Source: a virus (Duplodnaviria; Caudoviricetes). Taken from it: a stretch of DNA of 64,000 nt. The DNA lies in the IMG/VR virus record IMGVR_UViG_3300037400_004242; one strand, given 5' to 3'. Both the position numbers and the translations under genes were made by a program. Under the pieces are notes generated by a model, which had not been told where the DNA came from, searched no databases, and saw only the letters and a program-made list of their open reading frames with translations. Of this stretch, positions 6,700 through 53,715 are shown piece by piece (position 1 is the stretch's first letter; every line of letters starts with the position of its first letter).

Positions 6700-8379
6700 A
6701 TGTTAAAATATCTAGATAATTATCAAGGTATAGATTCTTTAAAAAATATGTCATTTGATGATTTGAATGGGTTAATTAAAGATATAGAAATATTAATATT
6801 AAAAAGATGCGAAACAATTGGAGGGCATTTAGCAACTAATATTAGTAATGTAGAAAGTGTTGTAATGTTATATCGCCATTTTAATCCTAAGAATGGATAT
6901 ATTGTGTATGATACTGCCCATGAAGGTTATACACATAAGATTTTAACCGATAGAAAAGATGTTTTTTTAAACAAATTAAAAGTTGGAACGTTAACAACAC
7001 CAAGAGAATCAAAATATGATTGTGTTGGATGTTCACATGGTGGAGTTGGTGCTTCATATTTATGTGGATTTGCTAAAGCAACAGATAAGCCATGCGTACT
7101 ATATGTTGGTGATGGCACGTTAACAAATGGCACAGAATTGGAAGGGCTAAATCAAATTGCTATGTTAAAAAGAAATGTTGTTATTGTGGTTAATGATAAC
7201 AGAATAACAATTATGTCTAGTTCTGGTGGAGTTTATAAACATTTAAATCAAGATTTTTTTAATTCTTTTGGTTTAGATTATATTGAAGTAAAAAATGGAT
7301 ATAACTTAAAAGAATTAGATAAAGCATATGATAAAGCATTTTCTGTTAATCATCCAATTGTTGTGCATGTACATACTGTAAAAGGTAAAGGTTATATTTA
7401 TTCAGAAAAGAATCCTACAAAATGGCATTTTTGTGATGAAGGTTTTAATGTATTAAAGGGAGACAATCATTATGCCGAAGGCGAATTACTAGATTTGTTA
7501 GATGATGTTATATCTGATATAATGAAAAAGAAACAAAATGTATATGCAGTTTCAACTTCGATGCCAGATTTGGGATTTGGGGAAAAAGTACAATCTTTTA
7601 AAAATAGATATTATGATGTTGGTATGGCAGAAGAACACGCATTTGTAGAATCTTGTGGTATTTCTCTTGCTGGTGGATATGCAATATTAGGAACATATTC
7701 AACATTTTCTCAAAGAATGTATGATATGATAATGACTTGTGGTACATTTGATAATATTAATATGACAATTCTTTTGCATGAAAGTGGTGTGAAGGAGAAT
7801 AATATATTTCAAAATGGGATGTATGATATATCAATGTTTAATCAGTCTCCGTATATTACAGAATTGTGCCCAGTAACAATGAATGATATTATATCAATGT
7901 TATATTATACAACATCTCAAAAAGGTATTTATGTTATTCGTATTCCAAATGGAATAGATGAAATAAATAATGAAAAATTGTATTTTGATAAAAATAGTTC
8001 TATGCAAATTCTTTCGTCAAATAACACAGATTTGATTTTTATAGGAATAGGAAAATCTATTTATGAAGCTAAGAAATATTCAGAGAAATATCCGTCAACA
8101 TTAATTTGCAGTATATCTAATCAATTAAATACTGAAATTTTAGATAATTTTAAAAAATCAAAATTAATTGTTGTGTTTGAAGATGGAATAGTTAGTGGTG
8201 GATTTGGAGATAAAATTAATAGATATTTTGCTTTAGATGATGTTAAAGTTTTGCCTGTAGGAATATCAAATTATAATTATTTTGGCAATCCAAATGATAA
8301 GAATATAGAAGATATTTATAAAGAAAATGATATTGATTTTGACTCTATTTGTAAAAAAATTGATAGTGTGATAAAATGA
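6700..8379 (+). CDS. dxs: DXS (1-deoxy-D-xylulose-5-phosphate synthase)-like ThDP-dependent enzyme
   Basis: GGHLA, YDTAHEGYTHKILTDR, ThDP motif GDG...NDN, HVHTVKGKGY, DVGMAEEHA, YSTFSQR, GGFG. Confidence 0.85.
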   Translation: MLKYLDNYQGIDSLKNMSFDDLNGLIKDIEILILKRCETIGGHLATNISNVESVVMLYRHFNPKNGYIVYDTAHEGYTHKILTDRKDVFLNKLKVGTLTTPRESKYDCVGCSHGGVGASYLCGFAKATDKPCVLYVGDGTLTNGTELEGLNQIAMLKRNVVIVVNDNRITIMSSSGGVYKHLNQDFFNSFGLDYIEVKNGYNLKELDKAYDKAFSVNHPIVVHVHTVKGKGYIYSEKNPTKWHFCDEGFNVLKGDNHYAEGELLDLLDDVISDIMKKKQNVYAVSTSMPDLGFGEKVQSFKNRYYDVGMAEEHAFVESCGISLAGGYAILGTYSTFSQRMYDMIMTCGTFDNINMTILLHESGVKENNIFQNGMYDISMFNQSPYITELCPVTMNDIISMLYYTTSQKGIYVIRIPNGIDEINNEKLYFDKNSSMQILSSNNTDLIFIGIGKSIYEAKKYSEKYPSTLICSISNQLNTEILDNFKKSKLIVVFEDGIVSGGFGDKINRYFALDDVKVLPVGISNYNYFGNPNDKNIEDIYKENDIDFDSICKKIDSVIK

Positions 8380-27948: not shown

Positions 27949-29328
27949 TTGCTTTTGTTTTTAGAATGGAGCTTCTATATGATAGACATTTTAATATATT
28001 ATCCATATTTGGATGGGACAACAATTTCTTTAATAGATACCTATTATAATTTACGAAATCATCTATCATCTTGTAAGTTCATAAATCCCCTCCAAAACAA
28101 CTTTAAAGATAATCTACATAATAAATCTAATGAAAAAACTGATTACTTGATAAATCCCCATGATAACAATGTATCTAATCGAGATAACAATGTATGTTGT
28201 AACATTGTAGTAGATAGCAAAGACATCAAAACGAATGTAGAATATTTTCTTGCATTAAAAAGAAGTCTACCAAAGGATTTTCAATATACAGTTATTCCAC
28301 TAGAAAAACTATATGAGAAGAAATTTGATAAACTCATTATGTCATTTGGATTTTTTCGTTTTTTAGATACCTATCCACATAAAATAAAACAATTATATTT
28401 ATTAGATGCAGGAAGAATCATTCATGATTATTACGTAGAGCATGGAGAACACATAAAGTATGTGATACATGAATATTCAGAAGTTTACAATTTTCTATAT
28501 ATATTATCCTATGTACATTTTCATCAAACGAGCAATAAAAGATTATTACCGATTTCAAGAATAGAAAAAGAAAGAAATTTATATTTAAAAATTTTGCATC
28601 AAAAAATAAAGAAAGAAGACATTTTTGATATATTTTATCAATATAATTTTCATGAAATTTACGAAACCGTTTTTAAGGGGTCTAGTTTTCGTTCTAAGCA
28701 TGGTCTAGATGAAACAGGTATAGTTAGTCTTAAAGACATTGAAACGCTCTCAGAATCAATCCTAGGAGGGCAGGAAGGCATATCTGAATTAGAAAGTATG
28801 TATCAATATCTTTACAAGTTTATTTATATTCAACATAGAGGGGTAAAGAAAGAGAAATATTGTATATACGGAAATGAAGCGAACGAGAAACTAATACGTA
28901 AAGTAGAACGATATACAGAGTATAAAAGATACTATCATACATTTAGTAAAGAAAGATTTCAGAAACTAAAAGAACTAAATACAACATCAGAGGTAGTACA
29001 AGTAAAAGATAGGGAAAAGACGGGGAATATTAAATTTCAACATTTATTAGCAAAAGAATTAAAATATCATAGATGGAGGAAAGTAATAGAAGGAGTATAT
29101 GCAGAAAATATAGGAAAAATGATATTTGAATTTTCGGCATTAGGGAAAAGAGTATATTATAGCAGAGAAAATAAAACACAAGATGATGGGTTAACAGAAT
29201 ATTTAAAGTTATTTGGAATTGATGATAATATAGACCAAGAAATAAAAATAAGTGAAGAGGAATTATTTGACAAGTTAGGAATGAAAGATGATGATATATT
29301 ATTAATAGATTTATTAAAAGAAAGGTGA
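27949..29328 (+). CDS. Divergent GT-B-like glycosyltransferase with insertions (start probably 27979)
   Basis: Paralog of 56274-57206; ENIGKMIFE is an EX7E motif; DDGLTEY. Confidence 0.45.
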   Translation: MLLFLEWSFYMIDILIYYPYLDGTTISLIDTYYNLRNHLSSCKFINPLQNNFKDNLHNKSNEKTDYLINPHDNNVSNRDNNVCCNIVVDSKDIKTNVEYFLALKRSLPKDFQYTVIPLEKLYEKKFDKLIMSFGFFRFLDTYPHKIKQLYLLDAGRIIHDYYVEHGEHIKYVIHEYSEVYNFLYILSYVHFHQTSNKRLLPISRIEKERNLYLKILHQKIKKEDIFDIFYQYNFHEIYETVFKGSSFRSKHGLDETGIVSLKDIETLSESILGGQEGISELESMYQYLYKFIYIQHRGVKKEKYCIYGNEANEKLIRKVERYTEYKRYYHTFSKERFQKLKELNTTSEVVQVKDREKTGNIKFQHLLAKELKYHRWRKVIEGVYAENIGKMIFEFSALGKRVYYSRENKTQDDGLTEYLKLFGIDDNIDQEIKISEEELFDKLGMKDDDILLIDLLKER

Positions 29329-29339
29329 TTAACGAATGA

Positions 29340-30119
29340 GTCAGTCACCCGACCTCGGCAAAAAGGAAAATTCCCGTCTTTGACGGAGTTGGCAGAGATG
29401 CCCGTGGAATACCGCCCTCTTTTGGGGGCGGGGTGTTCCATGTACTTGTTAGTTGAAACGTGCTTTAGATGCACTTTTAAGTATATTTGTCTATGTTTTT
29501 AGAAGGAGATTTTTCTGTGGAAATAAATGACAAAAATTTTATTAAAAGGAATATGAAAAAAAACGAAACTGATGAATGGCTAACACCAGAATCAGCAGTT
29601 AGCCCTTTAGTTGAACAACTAAGAAATAAATGCTTTAAAACGATTTGGTGTCCGTTTGATTTAGATGATTCTAACTATGTAAAAGTGCTAAAAGAAAATG
29701 GATTCACAGTTATAAATAGTCATTTAGAAAATGGTCAGGACTTTTTTAGTTATGAACCATCTATTCATTATGATGCAATTGTCAGCAATCCACCTTATAC
29801 ATTAAGAAACGAAGTATTAAAAAGAATTTTTGAATTAAATAAACCGTTTGCTTTGCTACTAAATTATAATGGACTTTTTGATAATCAAAAGCGTTTCAAC
29901 CTCTTTAAAGAAAATGGAATAGAGCTTTTTGTATTAAAAGGAAGAACAGGATTTATTAGACGGTCTAATGGTTTTTGTGCAAAACCTTTGTTTCAGTCAA
30001 TCTATCTTTGTCATAATATTTTTGATGAAAAGATTGTATATCAAGATTAATTTTGTCAAACGGTTAAAGTTTTGTTTAGCCCCACGGCTAAAGGCATGGG
30101 CTTTCGTGCCGCAGAGATA
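29340..30119 (+). mobile_element. Non-autonomous IS200/IS605 (IscB-type ends) element carrying a methyltransferase gene
   Basis: Starts GTCAGTCACCC (compare TTCAGTAACCC at 52411); GC-rich hairpins; ends with CCCACGGCTAAAGGCATGGG hairpin; removal restores an in-frame ORF. Confidence 0.65.
29487..30050 (+). CDS. N6-adenine DNA methyltransferase-like protein (start possibly GTG 29517)
   Basis: DEWLTP, IWCPFD, GQDFF, IVSNPPY catalytic motif. Confidence 0.75.
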   Translation: MSMFLEGDFSVEINDKNFIKRNMKKNETDEWLTPESAVSPLVEQLRNKCFKTIWCPFDLDDSNYVKVLKENGFTVINSHLENGQDFFSYEPSIHYDAIVSNPPYTLRNEVLKRIFELNKPFALLLNYNGLFDNQKRFNLFKENGIELFVLKGRTGFIRRSNGFCAKPLFQSIYLCHNIFDEKIVYQD

Positions 30120-30243
30120 GTGAAAATTCCATTGTAAAACGTTTAGCAAAAAATTTTATAAAATAAGAAAAAAAGACAAGTTATTTTTAAACTTGTCTTA
30201 TTTCTTTTATGTAAGTATATTTTAATAAAGAGGAAGTGGAAAT

Positions 30244-30699
30244 ATGGTAGATAACGTAAAAGTCATGAATCAAACGAAATTAGTTATGGATGCACTATTT
30301 CGATATATAGATGTTAATGATATAACATTTTTTGTATATCGAGTAAAAGATTTTCCTTTAATGAAAACAATAACGGAAAAAATCGTAGGAGATTTCAATA
30401 CATATTCAAATAGGAAAACATATTATGTAGGGTATCTAAAAGGATATAAACGAAACACAAAACTAATTATGTTTACATTATTATTAAATGACAGGAATGT
30501 TTGCGATATAACATATCAGTATGATAGAATCAATAATTTTGTAAAAAATAATTTAAAAGATACAGATATTTTTATGATTAAATTGAACACACAATATACA
30601 GATTATCATGAATTTGTTCGAGACTTTCAAAATAGTGTTCAAGCATATTTATCAGATAGATTTAAAAACAAATTAGAAAGGGAAGATTCTAATGAGTGA
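30244..30699 (+). CDS. Hypothetical protein
   Basis: ORF with RBS; no recognised motif. Confidence 0.55.
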   Translation: MVDNVKVMNQTKLVMDALFRYIDVNDITFFVYRVKDFPLMKTITEKIVGDFNTYSNRKTYYVGYLKGYKRNTKLIMFTLLLNDRNVCDITYQYDRINNFVKNNLKDTDIFMIKLNTQYTDYHEFVRDFQNSVQAYLSDRFKNKLEREDSNE

Positions 30700-30856
30700 A
30701 GTATTAGTATTGCTTGTGATAGCATATTTAATGAATATCATTGTAAATTTTATGACAGATGCAATATGGTTTGTTATATTAACATGTATGTTTTTATGGT
30801 CAATTAATGGGGAATTTACGTTAAGATATTTTTTTGAATATTTAAGAAGTAGGTGA
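30692..30856 (+). CDS. Small membrane protein (54 aa, not in the ORF track)
   Basis: GGGAAG RBS; MSEVLVLLVIAYLMNIIVNFMTDAIWFVILTCMFLW...; overlaps the upstream stop and fills the operon gap. Confidence 0.55.
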   Translation: MSEVLVLLVIAYLMNIIVNFMTDAIWFVILTCMFLWSINGEFTLRYFFEYLRSR

Positions 30857-30862
30857 ATAGAC

Positions 30863-32695
30863 GTGGAATTTAATTCCGTAGAGCAAGTAAAGAAATATTT
30901 AAAAGAAAAAGATTTAGATTTTAATGATTTTAAATATGCAACAGATTTTTATTTTGATGAAGATGGAGCAGAATATAATCGTTTTTTTGAAGCTGTTTAT
31001 CCAATGGAATTTATTGATTTCGATAAGAATGAACAAATTTTAAAAGATATTGAAAAAAGCACAATAGATGATTTAGTAGATTATGAAATAAAGAGAAATA
31101 AAGATAAATTTCAAAATGAATATTCTGCATGGATACAAAATGAAGCGAATGTAAATGAAAAATTTACTTTTTCAGATGACTGTCTAAAAGAAATTGTAAA
31201 AGGTTATATTCATGATAGTGCATTTACCAATGGATTTAAGCAAGAAAAGAAAAAATATTATGATTATTTTGAAGCTGAAATTGGAAATGATGACTATAAA
31301 TATGTAGATGAAGAAAAAACAGATAAAACATATCAAAGTGCATCTGCATTGGATGAAGCAGATGATTCTATTGGAGATACCCATAAAATAGATTTTGGAT
31401 TTGATGTACAAGATAGAGATTATGCTTTCATTTATTTAGATGGAGATATAATTAAAGGAAAATTAAATCAAACACATGCGCAGATTTTAAAAGATTATTT
31501 AAAAAACAATGATAAAGAAGATTTAATTCCTGAAGACTTAAAAGATGGTGGAGATGTAGGAGATAGTAGACCGAGCATGAAACGTATGCAACGATTAACA
31601 GGGGAAGAAAATGTTGCATTTGGTAATGTTATTGGGAAAGTTGCTTTTATTGAAGTCGTAAATGGAATAGATGAAAATGAAGTAGCAAAAGAATGTATGA
31701 ATCAGTTGAATATTGATAAAGTATATTTTGCAAGTCATGCGAACAAAATGGTAAAACGTTTGGCAAAATGGGCAGTTGCAAGTAATATAAAATTTTCAAA
31801 TATAAATGATTTAAAAGATTACTTGGGTGCTGATTATAAAACATTCTTGAACGCACCTGCATGTATTCATAAAGACGGAATTATACAAGTTTTTGATATG
31901 TTATTCCCGACATCGAAGCGTAATAAAGATAGAAGTTTGAATGATAATGCATATCAAGGTGTAAATGAATTTGAACAAGGGCAATATATTCAAGGCATTT
32001 TTAAAAACAACATGTTGTTGAATCAATACAATGCATGGCTAAAAAAATACAATAGTTCTGATAATCTTTCGATTGATGAAAATTGTTTGGATGAAGTTAC
32101 AGATGATATGGTAGAAAATACCAATTTTGAAAATGAATTTAAAAGTGCAAAAAAAACATTTATTGTTGACCATGAGCAAGGATACCCAGGGTTTGGAGAA
32201 AATGGGTATAAAGGTATCAATGAAGATAAAGACAATGAAGTAGAAAAATTTAAAGATGTTCCAACCTTAGATGATAAAGTTGGAGATGTAACATATGTTA
32301 CAAAAGATTATGAACTTGATGTTGGAACACGAGATGGAGCATTTTTATATATTGATGGACAAATTTTGAAAGGTGGGAAAAATGAAACACACGCACAGCT
32401 ACTACAGAAATATATGGAAGAGGAAGGGAAAAAAGACGAAATCCCTGAAGACTTGGTACAAAATAATCAAGAAAATAGCAGACCGAGCGAAATCCGAATG
32501 AAACGTTTAACAGAAACTGAAGATGTTGCATTTGGAAGTCTTTTGAAGAATATTGCATTTATTGAAGTGTTTGAAAATGGTGCAGATGAAAATACTGTTG
32601 CTCAGGCTTGCATGAAAGAATTAGGCGTAAAAAAAGTATACTTCTTAGATGATAAGAATGTGCTGAAACGTCTTGCAAAATGGAATTGCTATTAA
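30863..32695 (+). CDS. Acidic tandem-duplicated protein (two ~300-aa units, each ending KRLAKW)
   Basis: Repeated RD.AF.Y.DG.I.KG...THAQ.L...RPS..RM.RLT..E.VAFG...AFIEV...KVYF...KRLAKW. Confidence 0.7.
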   Translation: MEFNSVEQVKKYLKEKDLDFNDFKYATDFYFDEDGAEYNRFFEAVYPMEFIDFDKNEQILKDIEKSTIDDLVDYEIKRNKDKFQNEYSAWIQNEANVNEKFTFSDDCLKEIVKGYIHDSAFTNGFKQEKKKYYDYFEAEIGNDDYKYVDEEKTDKTYQSASALDEADDSIGDTHKIDFGFDVQDRDYAFIYLDGDIIKGKLNQTHAQILKDYLKNNDKEDLIPEDLKDGGDVGDSRPSMKRMQRLTGEENVAFGNVIGKVAFIEVVNGIDENEVAKECMNQLNIDKVYFASHANKMVKRLAKWAVASNIKFSNINDLKDYLGADYKTFLNAPACIHKDGIIQVFDMLFPTSKRNKDRSLNDNAYQGVNEFEQGQYIQGIFKNNMLLNQYNAWLKKYNSSDNLSIDENCLDEVTDDMVENTNFENEFKSAKKTFIVDHEQGYPGFGENGYKGINEDKDNEVEKFKDVPTLDDKVGDVTYVTKDYELDVGTRDGAFLYIDGQILKGGKNETHAQLLQKYMEEEGKKDEIPEDLVQNNQENSRPSEIRMKRLTETEDVAFGSLLKNIAFIEVFENGADENTVAQACMKELGVKKVYFLDDKNVLKRLAKWNCY

Positions 32696-52410: not shown

Positions 52411-52670
52411 TTCAGTAACCCACGAATAAATTCGTGGGATTGTGGTAGAAATATCACAATCCTTTGCTGAATAGCCTAAGTCTTAACTGACTACGTTGTT
52501 ATCGTTATCACACCCTAGTGCGTATGCTTTAACGCTAGGCTCTGTAAAAGTTCTAAGAGGTAGGAACAGTCAACCAGACGTAGACCGATTACGGCAAGCG
52601 ATTATAACATTGGCTAAGAGTAACCAACTCAAGAATAAAGTTATTTATAACTTTAGGAAGGAGGTAGACT
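52411..52670 (+). ncRNA. IscB omegaRNA (HEARO-like)
   Basis: TTCAGTAA pairs with TTGCTGAA; CCCACGAA/TTCGTGGG hairpin; characteristic AGCCTAAGTCTTAACTGACTACGTT and AACATTGGC segments directly upstream of iscB. Confidence 0.8.
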
Positions 52671-52674
52671 TGTT

Positions 52675-53013
52675 ATGTTAGTCTACGTATTAAATAAAAA
52701 TGAAAAACCTTTAATGCCTTGCAGTCCCAGAAAAGCTAGGATACTTCTTAAAGAAGGTAAGGCAAAAGTAATTAGACGAGAACCTTTTACTATACAATTA
52801 CTCTATGGTTCTAGTGGATACAAACAGAAAGTAAATCTCGGCGTAGATGCTGGCAGTAAACATATAGGTTTATCTGCGACTACCGAGAAGAAAGAACTTT
52901 TCGCCAGCGAAGTTAAATTAAGAACTGACATCGTAGATTTATTGTCTACGAGACTTCAGTATAGAAGAAGTAGAAGAAATAGAACTACTATAAGAAGGGG
53001 AGACTTAATATGA
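52675..53013 (+). pseudogene. iscB: Truncated IscB (PLMP domain, RuvC-I, start of bridge helix)
   Basis: MLVYVLNK..KPLMPC.P.KARILLK.GKA, LGVDAGSKHIG, RRSRRNR, then a stop; HNH and RuvC-II/III are absent. Confidence 0.85.
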
Positions 53014-53324
53014 CAATGTATGCAATTATTATAACTTTAGACGCTGATACATTATCTAAAGTATACACAGGAAATAGTATAGCAAGTGCTTATACAGATA
53101 TTGAGGAAATACTAAGAAGTTATGGATTTTCTCATAAACAAGGAAGTGTATATTTTGGAGATGAGGGAATAGACGCTGTTCATACAGTTATTGCAGTACA
53201 GAAACTATCAAAAAAATATGATTGGTTTGTACCAAGCGTACAAGATGTGCGAATGATTAGAATAGAGGAAGATAGTGATTTGATGGTGGCGATTAGATTT
53301 GCATATTTGGAATCCAATAAGTGA
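53010..53324 (+). CDS. vapD: VapD-family (Cas2-like fold) protein
   Basis: MYAI..LD...AY.DI...L..YGF...QGSVYFG...WF..SV.DVRMIRIEE.SDL. Confidence 0.85.
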   Translation: MTMYAIIITLDADTLSKVYTGNSIASAYTDIEEILRSYGFSHKQGSVYFGDEGIDAVHTVIAVQKLSKKYDWFVPSVQDVRMIRIEEDSDLMVAIRFAYLESNK

Positions 53325-53448
53325 ACAATATATGTATTCTAAGCCTGTAAAAGTATTAGTAAAAAAATATAAAATGGTTAATAGAAAGGAGGAGCGTTGT
53401 TTCCTCCCATGGTTAAAACCATGGGAGGAAACAACGCAAAATATATGA

Positions 53449-53715
53449 ATGGAGAATAAAACTTTAACAGAAGAAGAAAAAAAAGATTTTATGGAAAAAA
53501 TGGCGAATATAATTAATTATATGGAAGCCACAAGAAATATTATTTATCCTATGGATAAGATATTGTATCAAACAATTAATAATATTTTATCAATGTATAT
53601 GATTAGTTTAGGAAGAAAAGTTGGTATGGAATATGAAGAACTAGAAAAAAAGTATTCCAAAGATGAATCTGAAGTTGATGATATTATTGATAAAATTAGT
53701 AAGGAGACAGAATAA
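53449..53715 (+). CDS. Hypothetical protein (continuation of the rSAM locus II operon)
   Basis: Its apparent original RBS (AGAAAGGA, 52401) lies on the other side of the IscB element. Confidence 0.55.
   Translation: MENKTLTEEEKKDFMEKMANIINYMEATRNIIYPMDKILYQTINNILSMYMISLGRKVGMEYEELEKKYSKDESEVDDIIDKISKETE

Follow-up and report, generated by a model that had tools for sequence, protein, structure and literature searches.

A methyltransferase gene of a giant rumen phage lies within the probable relic of an IS200/IS605 element

The DNA analysed here, a stretch of 64,000 nucleotides that we call the window, comes from an AT-rich giant rumen phage with 27% G+C overall. About 915 bases separate the gene for a 459-residue protein (27949-29328) from the gene for a 151-residue protein (30244-30699). 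Within this interval, two G+C-rich non-coding blocks, at 29340-29445 and ~30065-30119, enclose an open reading frame (ORF) at 29517-30050; all features of the interval are given on the plus strand. The original prediction had viewed this arrangement as a cargo element with IS200/IS605-type ends, built around a DNA methyltransferase gene and set into a 16-codon mini-gene with a KRLAK motif. Megablast of window positions 28300-31300 against the INPHARED phages returned no match, and a distant blastn search with 29300-30200 matched nothing but methyltransferase coding sequence of a Flavobacterium phage. A tRNA search of the window found none. Other G+C-rich islands in the window were considered as related elements and rejected, as they correspond to highly expressed structural genes.

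The enclosed ORF, of 177 codons with a GTG start, does encode a DNA methyltransferase: it matches PHROG 799 ('DNA methyltransferase') with an E value of 2e-31 and, weakly and over the NPPY region, the Pfam families Eco57I (25.2 bits, cut-off 25.3) and EcoRI_methylase. The SNPPY motif occupies residues 90-94, the WCPFD region, similar to motif I, shows no variation across the alignment of the family, and the order of motifs (TP..., WCPFD, NPPY; that is, X-I-IV) is that of the gamma-class N6-adenine enzymes. We collected 72 homologues, the best of them 91% identical; the closest (91-64% identical) come from Logan/ENA contigs. In an alignment with 14 homologues, the window's protein keeps every invariant column, and no target-recognition domain is evident in its 177 residues, which suggests that methylation may be non-specific. 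Judged from its sequence, the gene is intact and specifies an orphan gamma-class N6-adenine methyltransferase. Orphan DNA adenine methyltransferases of phages serve anti-restriction self-methylation, and by analogy the enzyme encoded here likely methylates the phage's own DNA against host restriction. Related methyltransferases are frequent in phages; in IMG/VR, tblastn confirmed more than 500 matches.

The block on the 3' side of the gene (30065-30119) is an IS200/IS605 left end, present as the complementary strand of the IS and composed of an imperfect palindrome core (30081-30100) followed by 19 bases to the element's boundary. We compared the last 60 bases of several elements, ungapped and anchored on the pentamer that follows each element. 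In this register, the left end is identical at 33 of 60 positions to the end of the window's IscB/vapD element, at 32 of 60 to L016, the counterpart of the vapD element in the relative G001, and at 31 of 60 to L018, an intact HEARO+IscB element in the relative G002. Shuffled left ends gave 15.1 +/- 3.4 of 60, and 0 of 5000 reached the observed 31-33 (p<0.0002). All four elements have the conserved palindrome core, then exactly 19 bases, then ATGAA, or GTGAA in the case of the methyltransferase element; the motif of core, 19 bases and RTGAA occurs in the window only twice, at 30081 and 53406. As had been predicted, GTGA(A) at 30120-30124 takes the place that ATGA(A) has at 53445-53449 behind the vapD element, at an equal distance from the palindrome core. 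GTGAA is the complement of TTCAC, a target-adjacent motif (TAM), and TTCAT, the complement of ATGAA, has been published as the TAM of GstIscB/ISGst5 (Meers et al., bioRxiv 10.1101/2023.03.14.532601). The IscB omegaRNA, moreover, is known to abut the transposon right end (Meers et al. 2023, bioRxiv 10.1101/2023.03.14.532601). Together, the published TAM and omegaRNA position indicate that the boundaries of 29340-30119 are right and that the 3' block is genuinely the left end of an IS200/IS605 element. Both this end and its target motif are authentic IS200/IS605 features of the IscB/TnpB type.

The terminal hairpin of the original prediction exists as the palindrome at 30081-30100, but it is imperfect, with four pairs followed by mismatches and with outer arms that no longer pair. 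Two 7-pair hairpins beside it fold better than the palindrome itself, and the fold of 30040-30170 is no better than that of shuffled sequences (z -0.7). A match to the 19-base left-end spacing of IS608 was dropped from consideration, because the 19 bases here count from the conserved core only; in the IscB/TnpB-type end family, the foot of the full palindrome lies ~7 bases from the boundary.

The same left-end motif was found in 14 IMG/VR stretches, mostly from jumbo phages (contigs of 90-330 kb). The family members carry ATGAA or GTGAA at the TAM position, where the search pattern demanded RTGAA, and begin with GTCAAYNACCC; some left ends have no recognisable right end in the sequence examined. 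Two members, L105 and L112, are 1.3-kb elements with a 336-residue RRXRR (IsrB-like) protein, on which Rfam HEARO scores below its gathering score. Their genes lie at L105:663-1673 (minus strand, 327-kb contig) and L112:5401-6411 (plus strand, 199-kb contig), and no HNH was seen; the stop codon of each is the TGA of the flanking ATGAA target motif, so that the ORF is completed by the flank. A third, from a 173-kb IMG/VR contig, holds a full-length TnpB of 384 residues (L102:5879-7033, plus strand) with a C-terminal CxxC...NADxNASxNI. With TnpB between IscB/IsrB-type ends, one end family evidently serves both nuclease types in jumbo phages, just as ISGst1-5 have ends common to IscB and TnpB elements (Meers et al. 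2023, bioRxiv 10.1101/2023.03.14.532601). L100 and L104 contain further members that lack genes and retain both ends; they measure 340 and 432 bases. The 91-kb contig IMGVR_UViG_3300048502_000185 contains a 99-base, two-hairpin PATE on the minus strand (~6774-6872 oriented), which runs from right-end terminus and hairpin through a 31-base spacer to the left-end hairpin, 19 bases and ATGAA. The vapD shell of G001 is itself among the 14 stretches. In the window, the vapD element (52411-53444) is an IscB element that has been gutted and carries a vapD (Cas2-fold) gene, and its G001 counterpart is gutted to a different extent.

At the opposite boundary of the methyltransferase element, 29340-29350 corresponds to the outermost 11 bases of an IS200/IS605 right end, which are at the same time the first bases of the IscB omegaRNA (HEARO). 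Nine of these 11 bases are shared with the HEARO starts at 52411, in L014 and in L016; they fit the conserved GUCA....CCC of Rfam RF02033, and GTCAGTCACCC at 29340 matches the right-end terminus of the end family, GTCAAYNACCC or TTCAGTAACCC. The element had been predicted to start like the omegaRNA at 52411, and that HEARO start is indeed the only other match to GTCAGTCACCC within 2 mismatches in the window, where 2.4 would be expected by chance. As an 11-base match it is thus no rarer than chance, and what gives it weight is solely where it lies, at the boundary. In family members whose right end could be identified, a hairpin 8 bases in differs from the left-end hairpin of the same element by no more than 5 mismatches; between 28000 and 30060 of the window, no 20-mer lies within 7 mismatches of the left-end core. 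Of the right end, the outermost 11 bases alone survive. The assignment of IS200/IS605-type ends therefore holds unequally: the left end and TAM are statistically solid, but the right end has shrunk to its terminus and lacks its hairpin.

Behind this terminus follows a G+C-rich structured segment (29351-29445). The stretch 29340-29445 has 55-63% G+C and folds better than shuffled sequences (z -3.2), and the hairpins that had been noticed in the 5' part are found at 29375-29385, 29391-29402 and 29404-29441. The covariance-model search for HEARO/omegaRNA that had been proposed as a check gave no RF02033 match at E<=10, either in 29200-30300 or in the 196 bases of 29325-29520; at its gathering score, this model also fails to detect the IsrB-type IMG/VR members. 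Searching the element against all of Rfam, at gathering score or E<=10, returned nothing relevant. Alignments of the 5' segment with HEARO RNAs and with the RNA regions of five IMG/VR family members (L100, L102, L104, L105 and L112) stayed at the level of shuffles, and neither the 5' end nor the 5' hairpin region turned up in exact-pattern searches of IMG/VR. In sequencing run X2, positions 29357-29508 recur in a second context of higher depth; this copy has a 1-base deletion at 29428, other letters upstream and, downstream, a different gene whose product starts with MNKKRV... At least 29357-29508 is therefore a repeated module and not unique transposon sequence.

This module reaches into the leader and RBS of the methyltransferase gene (29446-29516). 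The RBS, GAAGGAG at 29502-29508, lies 8 bases 5' of the GTG start, and no sigma-70 consensus promoter was found before the gene. Positions 29452-29508, RBS included, share 77-81% identity with the leader of a small PC4-like gene, which stands at the head of replication genes in the relatives G001 (L007) and G002 (L008). This homology indicates that the expression signals of the methyltransferase gene are native to this phage group. Separately, we observed in G002 a G+C-rich structured insertion of ~240 bases (L008:1195-1432), flanked by a terminator and by the conserved leader of the replication genes. L007 of G001 lacks this insertion; the last hairpin of the insertion resembles the window hairpin at 29404-29441. 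Rfam searches of L007 and L008, including the insertion, gave no family matches.

Removal of 29340-30119 leaves, as predicted, a 16-codon frame behind an RBS that overlaps the stop codon of the upstream 459-residue gene. The origin of this frame is revealed by L006, a JGI metagenome contig that shares 96-98% identity with the window on either side of the element. In place of window positions 29331-30115, L006 has 881 other bases, which together with the shared flanks form an intact gene for 308 residues (L006:2997-3923) that starts with ATGAGT and ends with ...VKRLAKNFIK. About 870 bases of this gene are absent from the window. What remains on the left is its start-codon region, ATGA at 29336-29339 (ATGAGT is common to the intact gene of L006), and on the right its 3' tail, the last 15-16 codons (...VKRLAKNFIK) with the stop codon at 30116-30166. 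The tail is colinear with L006:3873-3923, with 2 mismatches among its first 15 bases, and its initial 4 bases coincide with the last 4 of the element. Given the intact gene in L006, the 16-codon frame consists of the start codon and the final 15-16 codons of a damaged gene, and is not the KRLAK mini-gene that had been proposed as the target; the allele of L006 also appears in runs X5 and X8. Relatives without the methyltransferase but with a different junction, or ends unlike IS200/IS605 termini, had been named as findings that would speak against the original prediction. The junction does differ in L006, but the ends match those of IS200/IS605. Downstream of the tail, the intrinsic terminator of the former gene (30173-30199; a 10-pair stem, then a T run) is present in L006 too and now stands 3' of the methyltransferase unit.

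The 308-residue gene, the repeats of the downstream 610-residue ORF and homologues in L001 and L002 belong to one paralog family, whose members all end in VKRLAK and match nothing in Pfam or PHROG. Strains differ in how many of these ~300-residue paralogs they have and in whether the copies are fused: L006 has an extra copy upstream of the 151-residue gene, two copies are fused into the 610-residue ORF at 30863-32695 of the window, and those of L002 are split or interrupted. The distant L001 and L002 (41-64% protein identity) have neither the 308-residue paralog nor the element, and in both the stop codon of the 459-residue homologue overlaps the RBS of the 151-residue gene.

Since structured, G+C-rich RNA would flank the ORF on both sides, one might read the two blocks as halves of the RNA core of a self-splicing intron or ribozyme element, split by the ORF. 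We give this reading almost no credence: no Rfam intron or ribozyme family matches even at E<=10, the 3' half is a transposon end, and removal of the element leaves 16 codons without restoring the 308-residue gene, 870 bases of which are absent. Integron-cassette and riboswitch readings were also rejected, there being no model match and no host ORF restored.

Metagenomic contigs from independent samples reveal several alleles of the site. In run X8, an 8.7-kb Logan contig has 881 letters between the flanks and hence the intact-gene allele, and in run X5 the loose end of a contig reads the start of the intact 308-residue gene. Run X2 has the methyltransferase allele. A third allele, in run X6, joins 29348 through one base to 30082, giving a stub of ~51 bases with both termini. 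The site is thus polymorphic in rumen samples, being occupied by the intact gene, the methyltransferase element or the ~51-base stub. A precise empty site, with flank and TAM and nothing missing, is absent from L006, L001 and L002, and the loaded unit was observed at just this locus and in a single phage lineage (the window and run X2).

Taken together, these observations are probably explained by the unit being the relic of a non-autonomous IS200/IS605 element with a TTCAY target, whose interior holds an orphan methyltransferase gene with its phage leader. Peel-and-paste insertion leaves the target DNA undeleted, and at least two events are therefore needed to arrive at the present locus. In the neatest sequence of events, an element may first have inserted next to a TAM right behind the start codon of the paralog (ATGA | GTGA...), where the last four bases of the element and the flank would have made the sequence GATAGTGA. 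The 308-residue gene naturally contains GATAGTAA, 15 codons before its stop codon. Recombination between the 8-base repeats GATAGTGA and GATAGTAA could then have removed ~870 bases, and would yield exactly the junction of the window. Insertion followed by deletion would also account for the window matching L006 from GATAGT on, although the transposon boundary comes four bases later. The reverse order, in which a deletion came first and created the TAM, is equally possible. The nuclease and omegaRNA interior would have been replaced through recombination with phage DNA, which would have brought in the methyltransferase gene, its leader and its RBS; the vapD shell nearby would have exchanged its interior in a similar way. 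We infer the order of insertion, deletion and cargo capture from one strain comparison, in which no intermediate alleles were seen.

The junctions with L006 hold a further clue. All five bases of the spacer between RBS and ATG differ, AACGA at 29331-29335 of the window versus GCAAT at L006:2992-2996, in flanks that are otherwise near-identical. This 5-base block and the 2 differences on the right suggest that the event took place in a diverged allele, which later recombined into the present background. The same block and the same 2 of 15 bases would also fit a diverged donor, and with it a one-step gene swap ('moron') between phages, in which a methyltransferase cassette with its structured leader replaced the body of the paralog without any transposition at this site, the left-end-like sequence being a stray solo end or a donor remnant. 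Such a swap would account for the ~870 missing target bases, which peel-and-paste does not produce, and would agree with the second context of 29357-29508 in run X2 and with the left ends in IMG/VR that have no recognisable right end. We nonetheless consider a swap unlikely, because both boundaries fall exactly where the ends and TAM of the family predict, and because the GATAGTGA/GATAGTAA repeat explains a deletion following an ordinary insertion.

The relic reading also bears on whether the unit can still move. For TnpA to act, both hairpins must be present (He et al. 2011, PMC3201880; Meers et al., bioRxiv 10.1101/2023.03.14.532601), and with the right one absent the transposon ends are probably vestigial and inert; the unit is probably no longer excisable by TnpA. 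By tblastn, the 64-kb window has no TnpA. The 281-kb genome of G001 encodes a Y1 TnpA (L019:1462-1938, minus strand; 124 bits to PF01797) in an IS605-type element. A hairpin beside this tnpA has a CCCACGGG...CCCGTGGG stem, as in IscB-type end hairpins, and a long ORF follows the gene. One could accordingly propose a cargo transposon that is still mobile, transposase-less with the methyltransferase as passenger, and moved from one phage genome to another by a TnpA acting in trans, with insertion next to TTCAY. The authentic left end and TAM, the right-end terminus at its expected place and the second shell in the same window, with vapD, are all compatible with this proposal, and flexible boundary choice may permit the capture of extra sequence (Meers et al., bioRxiv 10.1101/2023.03.14.532601). 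We judge it improbable all the same. The right-end hairpin is missing, the unit has been seen at a single locus, the leader within it is native phage DNA, no relative has a precise empty site, and the TnpA of G001 belongs to a separate TnpA-TnpB element. Moreover, in the best 80 of the more than 500 methyltransferase loci in IMG/VR, neither similarity to the ends nor the left-end motif occurs within 1.5 kb. That transposition delivered the cargo, as originally envisaged, is thus disfavoured by the lack of a right-end hairpin and of an omegaRNA, by a window without TnpA and by the unit having been seen at a single locus.

Viewed as the relic of a non-autonomous element, the unit is a modest variation on known systems. 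It resembles the IscB/IsrB-omegaRNA (HEARO) and TnpB elements, such as ISGst1-5 of Geobacillus stearothermophilus, in its palindrome at a fixed distance from TTCAY, in its start resembling an omegaRNA or right end, and in being non-autonomous, without tnpA. Unlike them, it lacks a nuclease gene, a recognisable omegaRNA and a right-end hairpin, and holds instead a methyltransferase gene and a phage leader. PATEs and stand-alone omegaRNA elements are likewise transposase-less and nuclease-less with their IS ends kept, and the ~51-base stub allele resembles a one-hairpin PATE; unlike the gene-free PATEs, however, the unit carries a complete unrelated enzyme gene and is one hairpin short. Similar in plan are the vapD shell of the window and its G001 counterpart, which share the end family, the orientation of the cargo and the replacement of the nuclease by a small accessory gene. 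The vapD shell has kept its HEARO RNA (102 bits), right-end hairpin, IscB N-terminal fragment and perfect left-end palindrome, whereas the methyltransferase unit has lost all four. As an enzyme, the cargo is like other orphan phage methyltransferases of PHROG 799, small and stand-alone with NPPY and no partner restriction enzyme. The PHROG 799 loci that we examined have ordinary phage contexts, and only the window's copy lies between IS200/IS605 ends.

The usual view is that IS200/IS605 elements have no cargo beyond tnpA and/or an RNA-guided nuclease. The phage genome studied here holds two shells of one end family with unrelated accessory genes, vapD and the methyltransferase gene, and across jumbo-phage contigs this end family occurs as IsrB, TnpB, gene-less and 99-base forms. 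A bolder conjecture, to which we assign a low probability, is that IS200/IS605 shells are reusable gene cassettes in rumen jumbo phages, which gain small defence or counter-defence genes after loss of the nuclease and are moved or copied between co-infecting phages by TnpA in trans or by end-guided recombination. If true, single-strand transposons would include a class with cargo that has yet to be described. With a single capture at a single locus and ends that are apparently dead, the practical importance of the unit is modest. The site does show rapid turnover in a wild phage population, near-identical genomes alternating between gene, unit and scar. Giant phages thus offer a place to study how such elements decay, and whether their ends aid the swapping of small defence-related genes.
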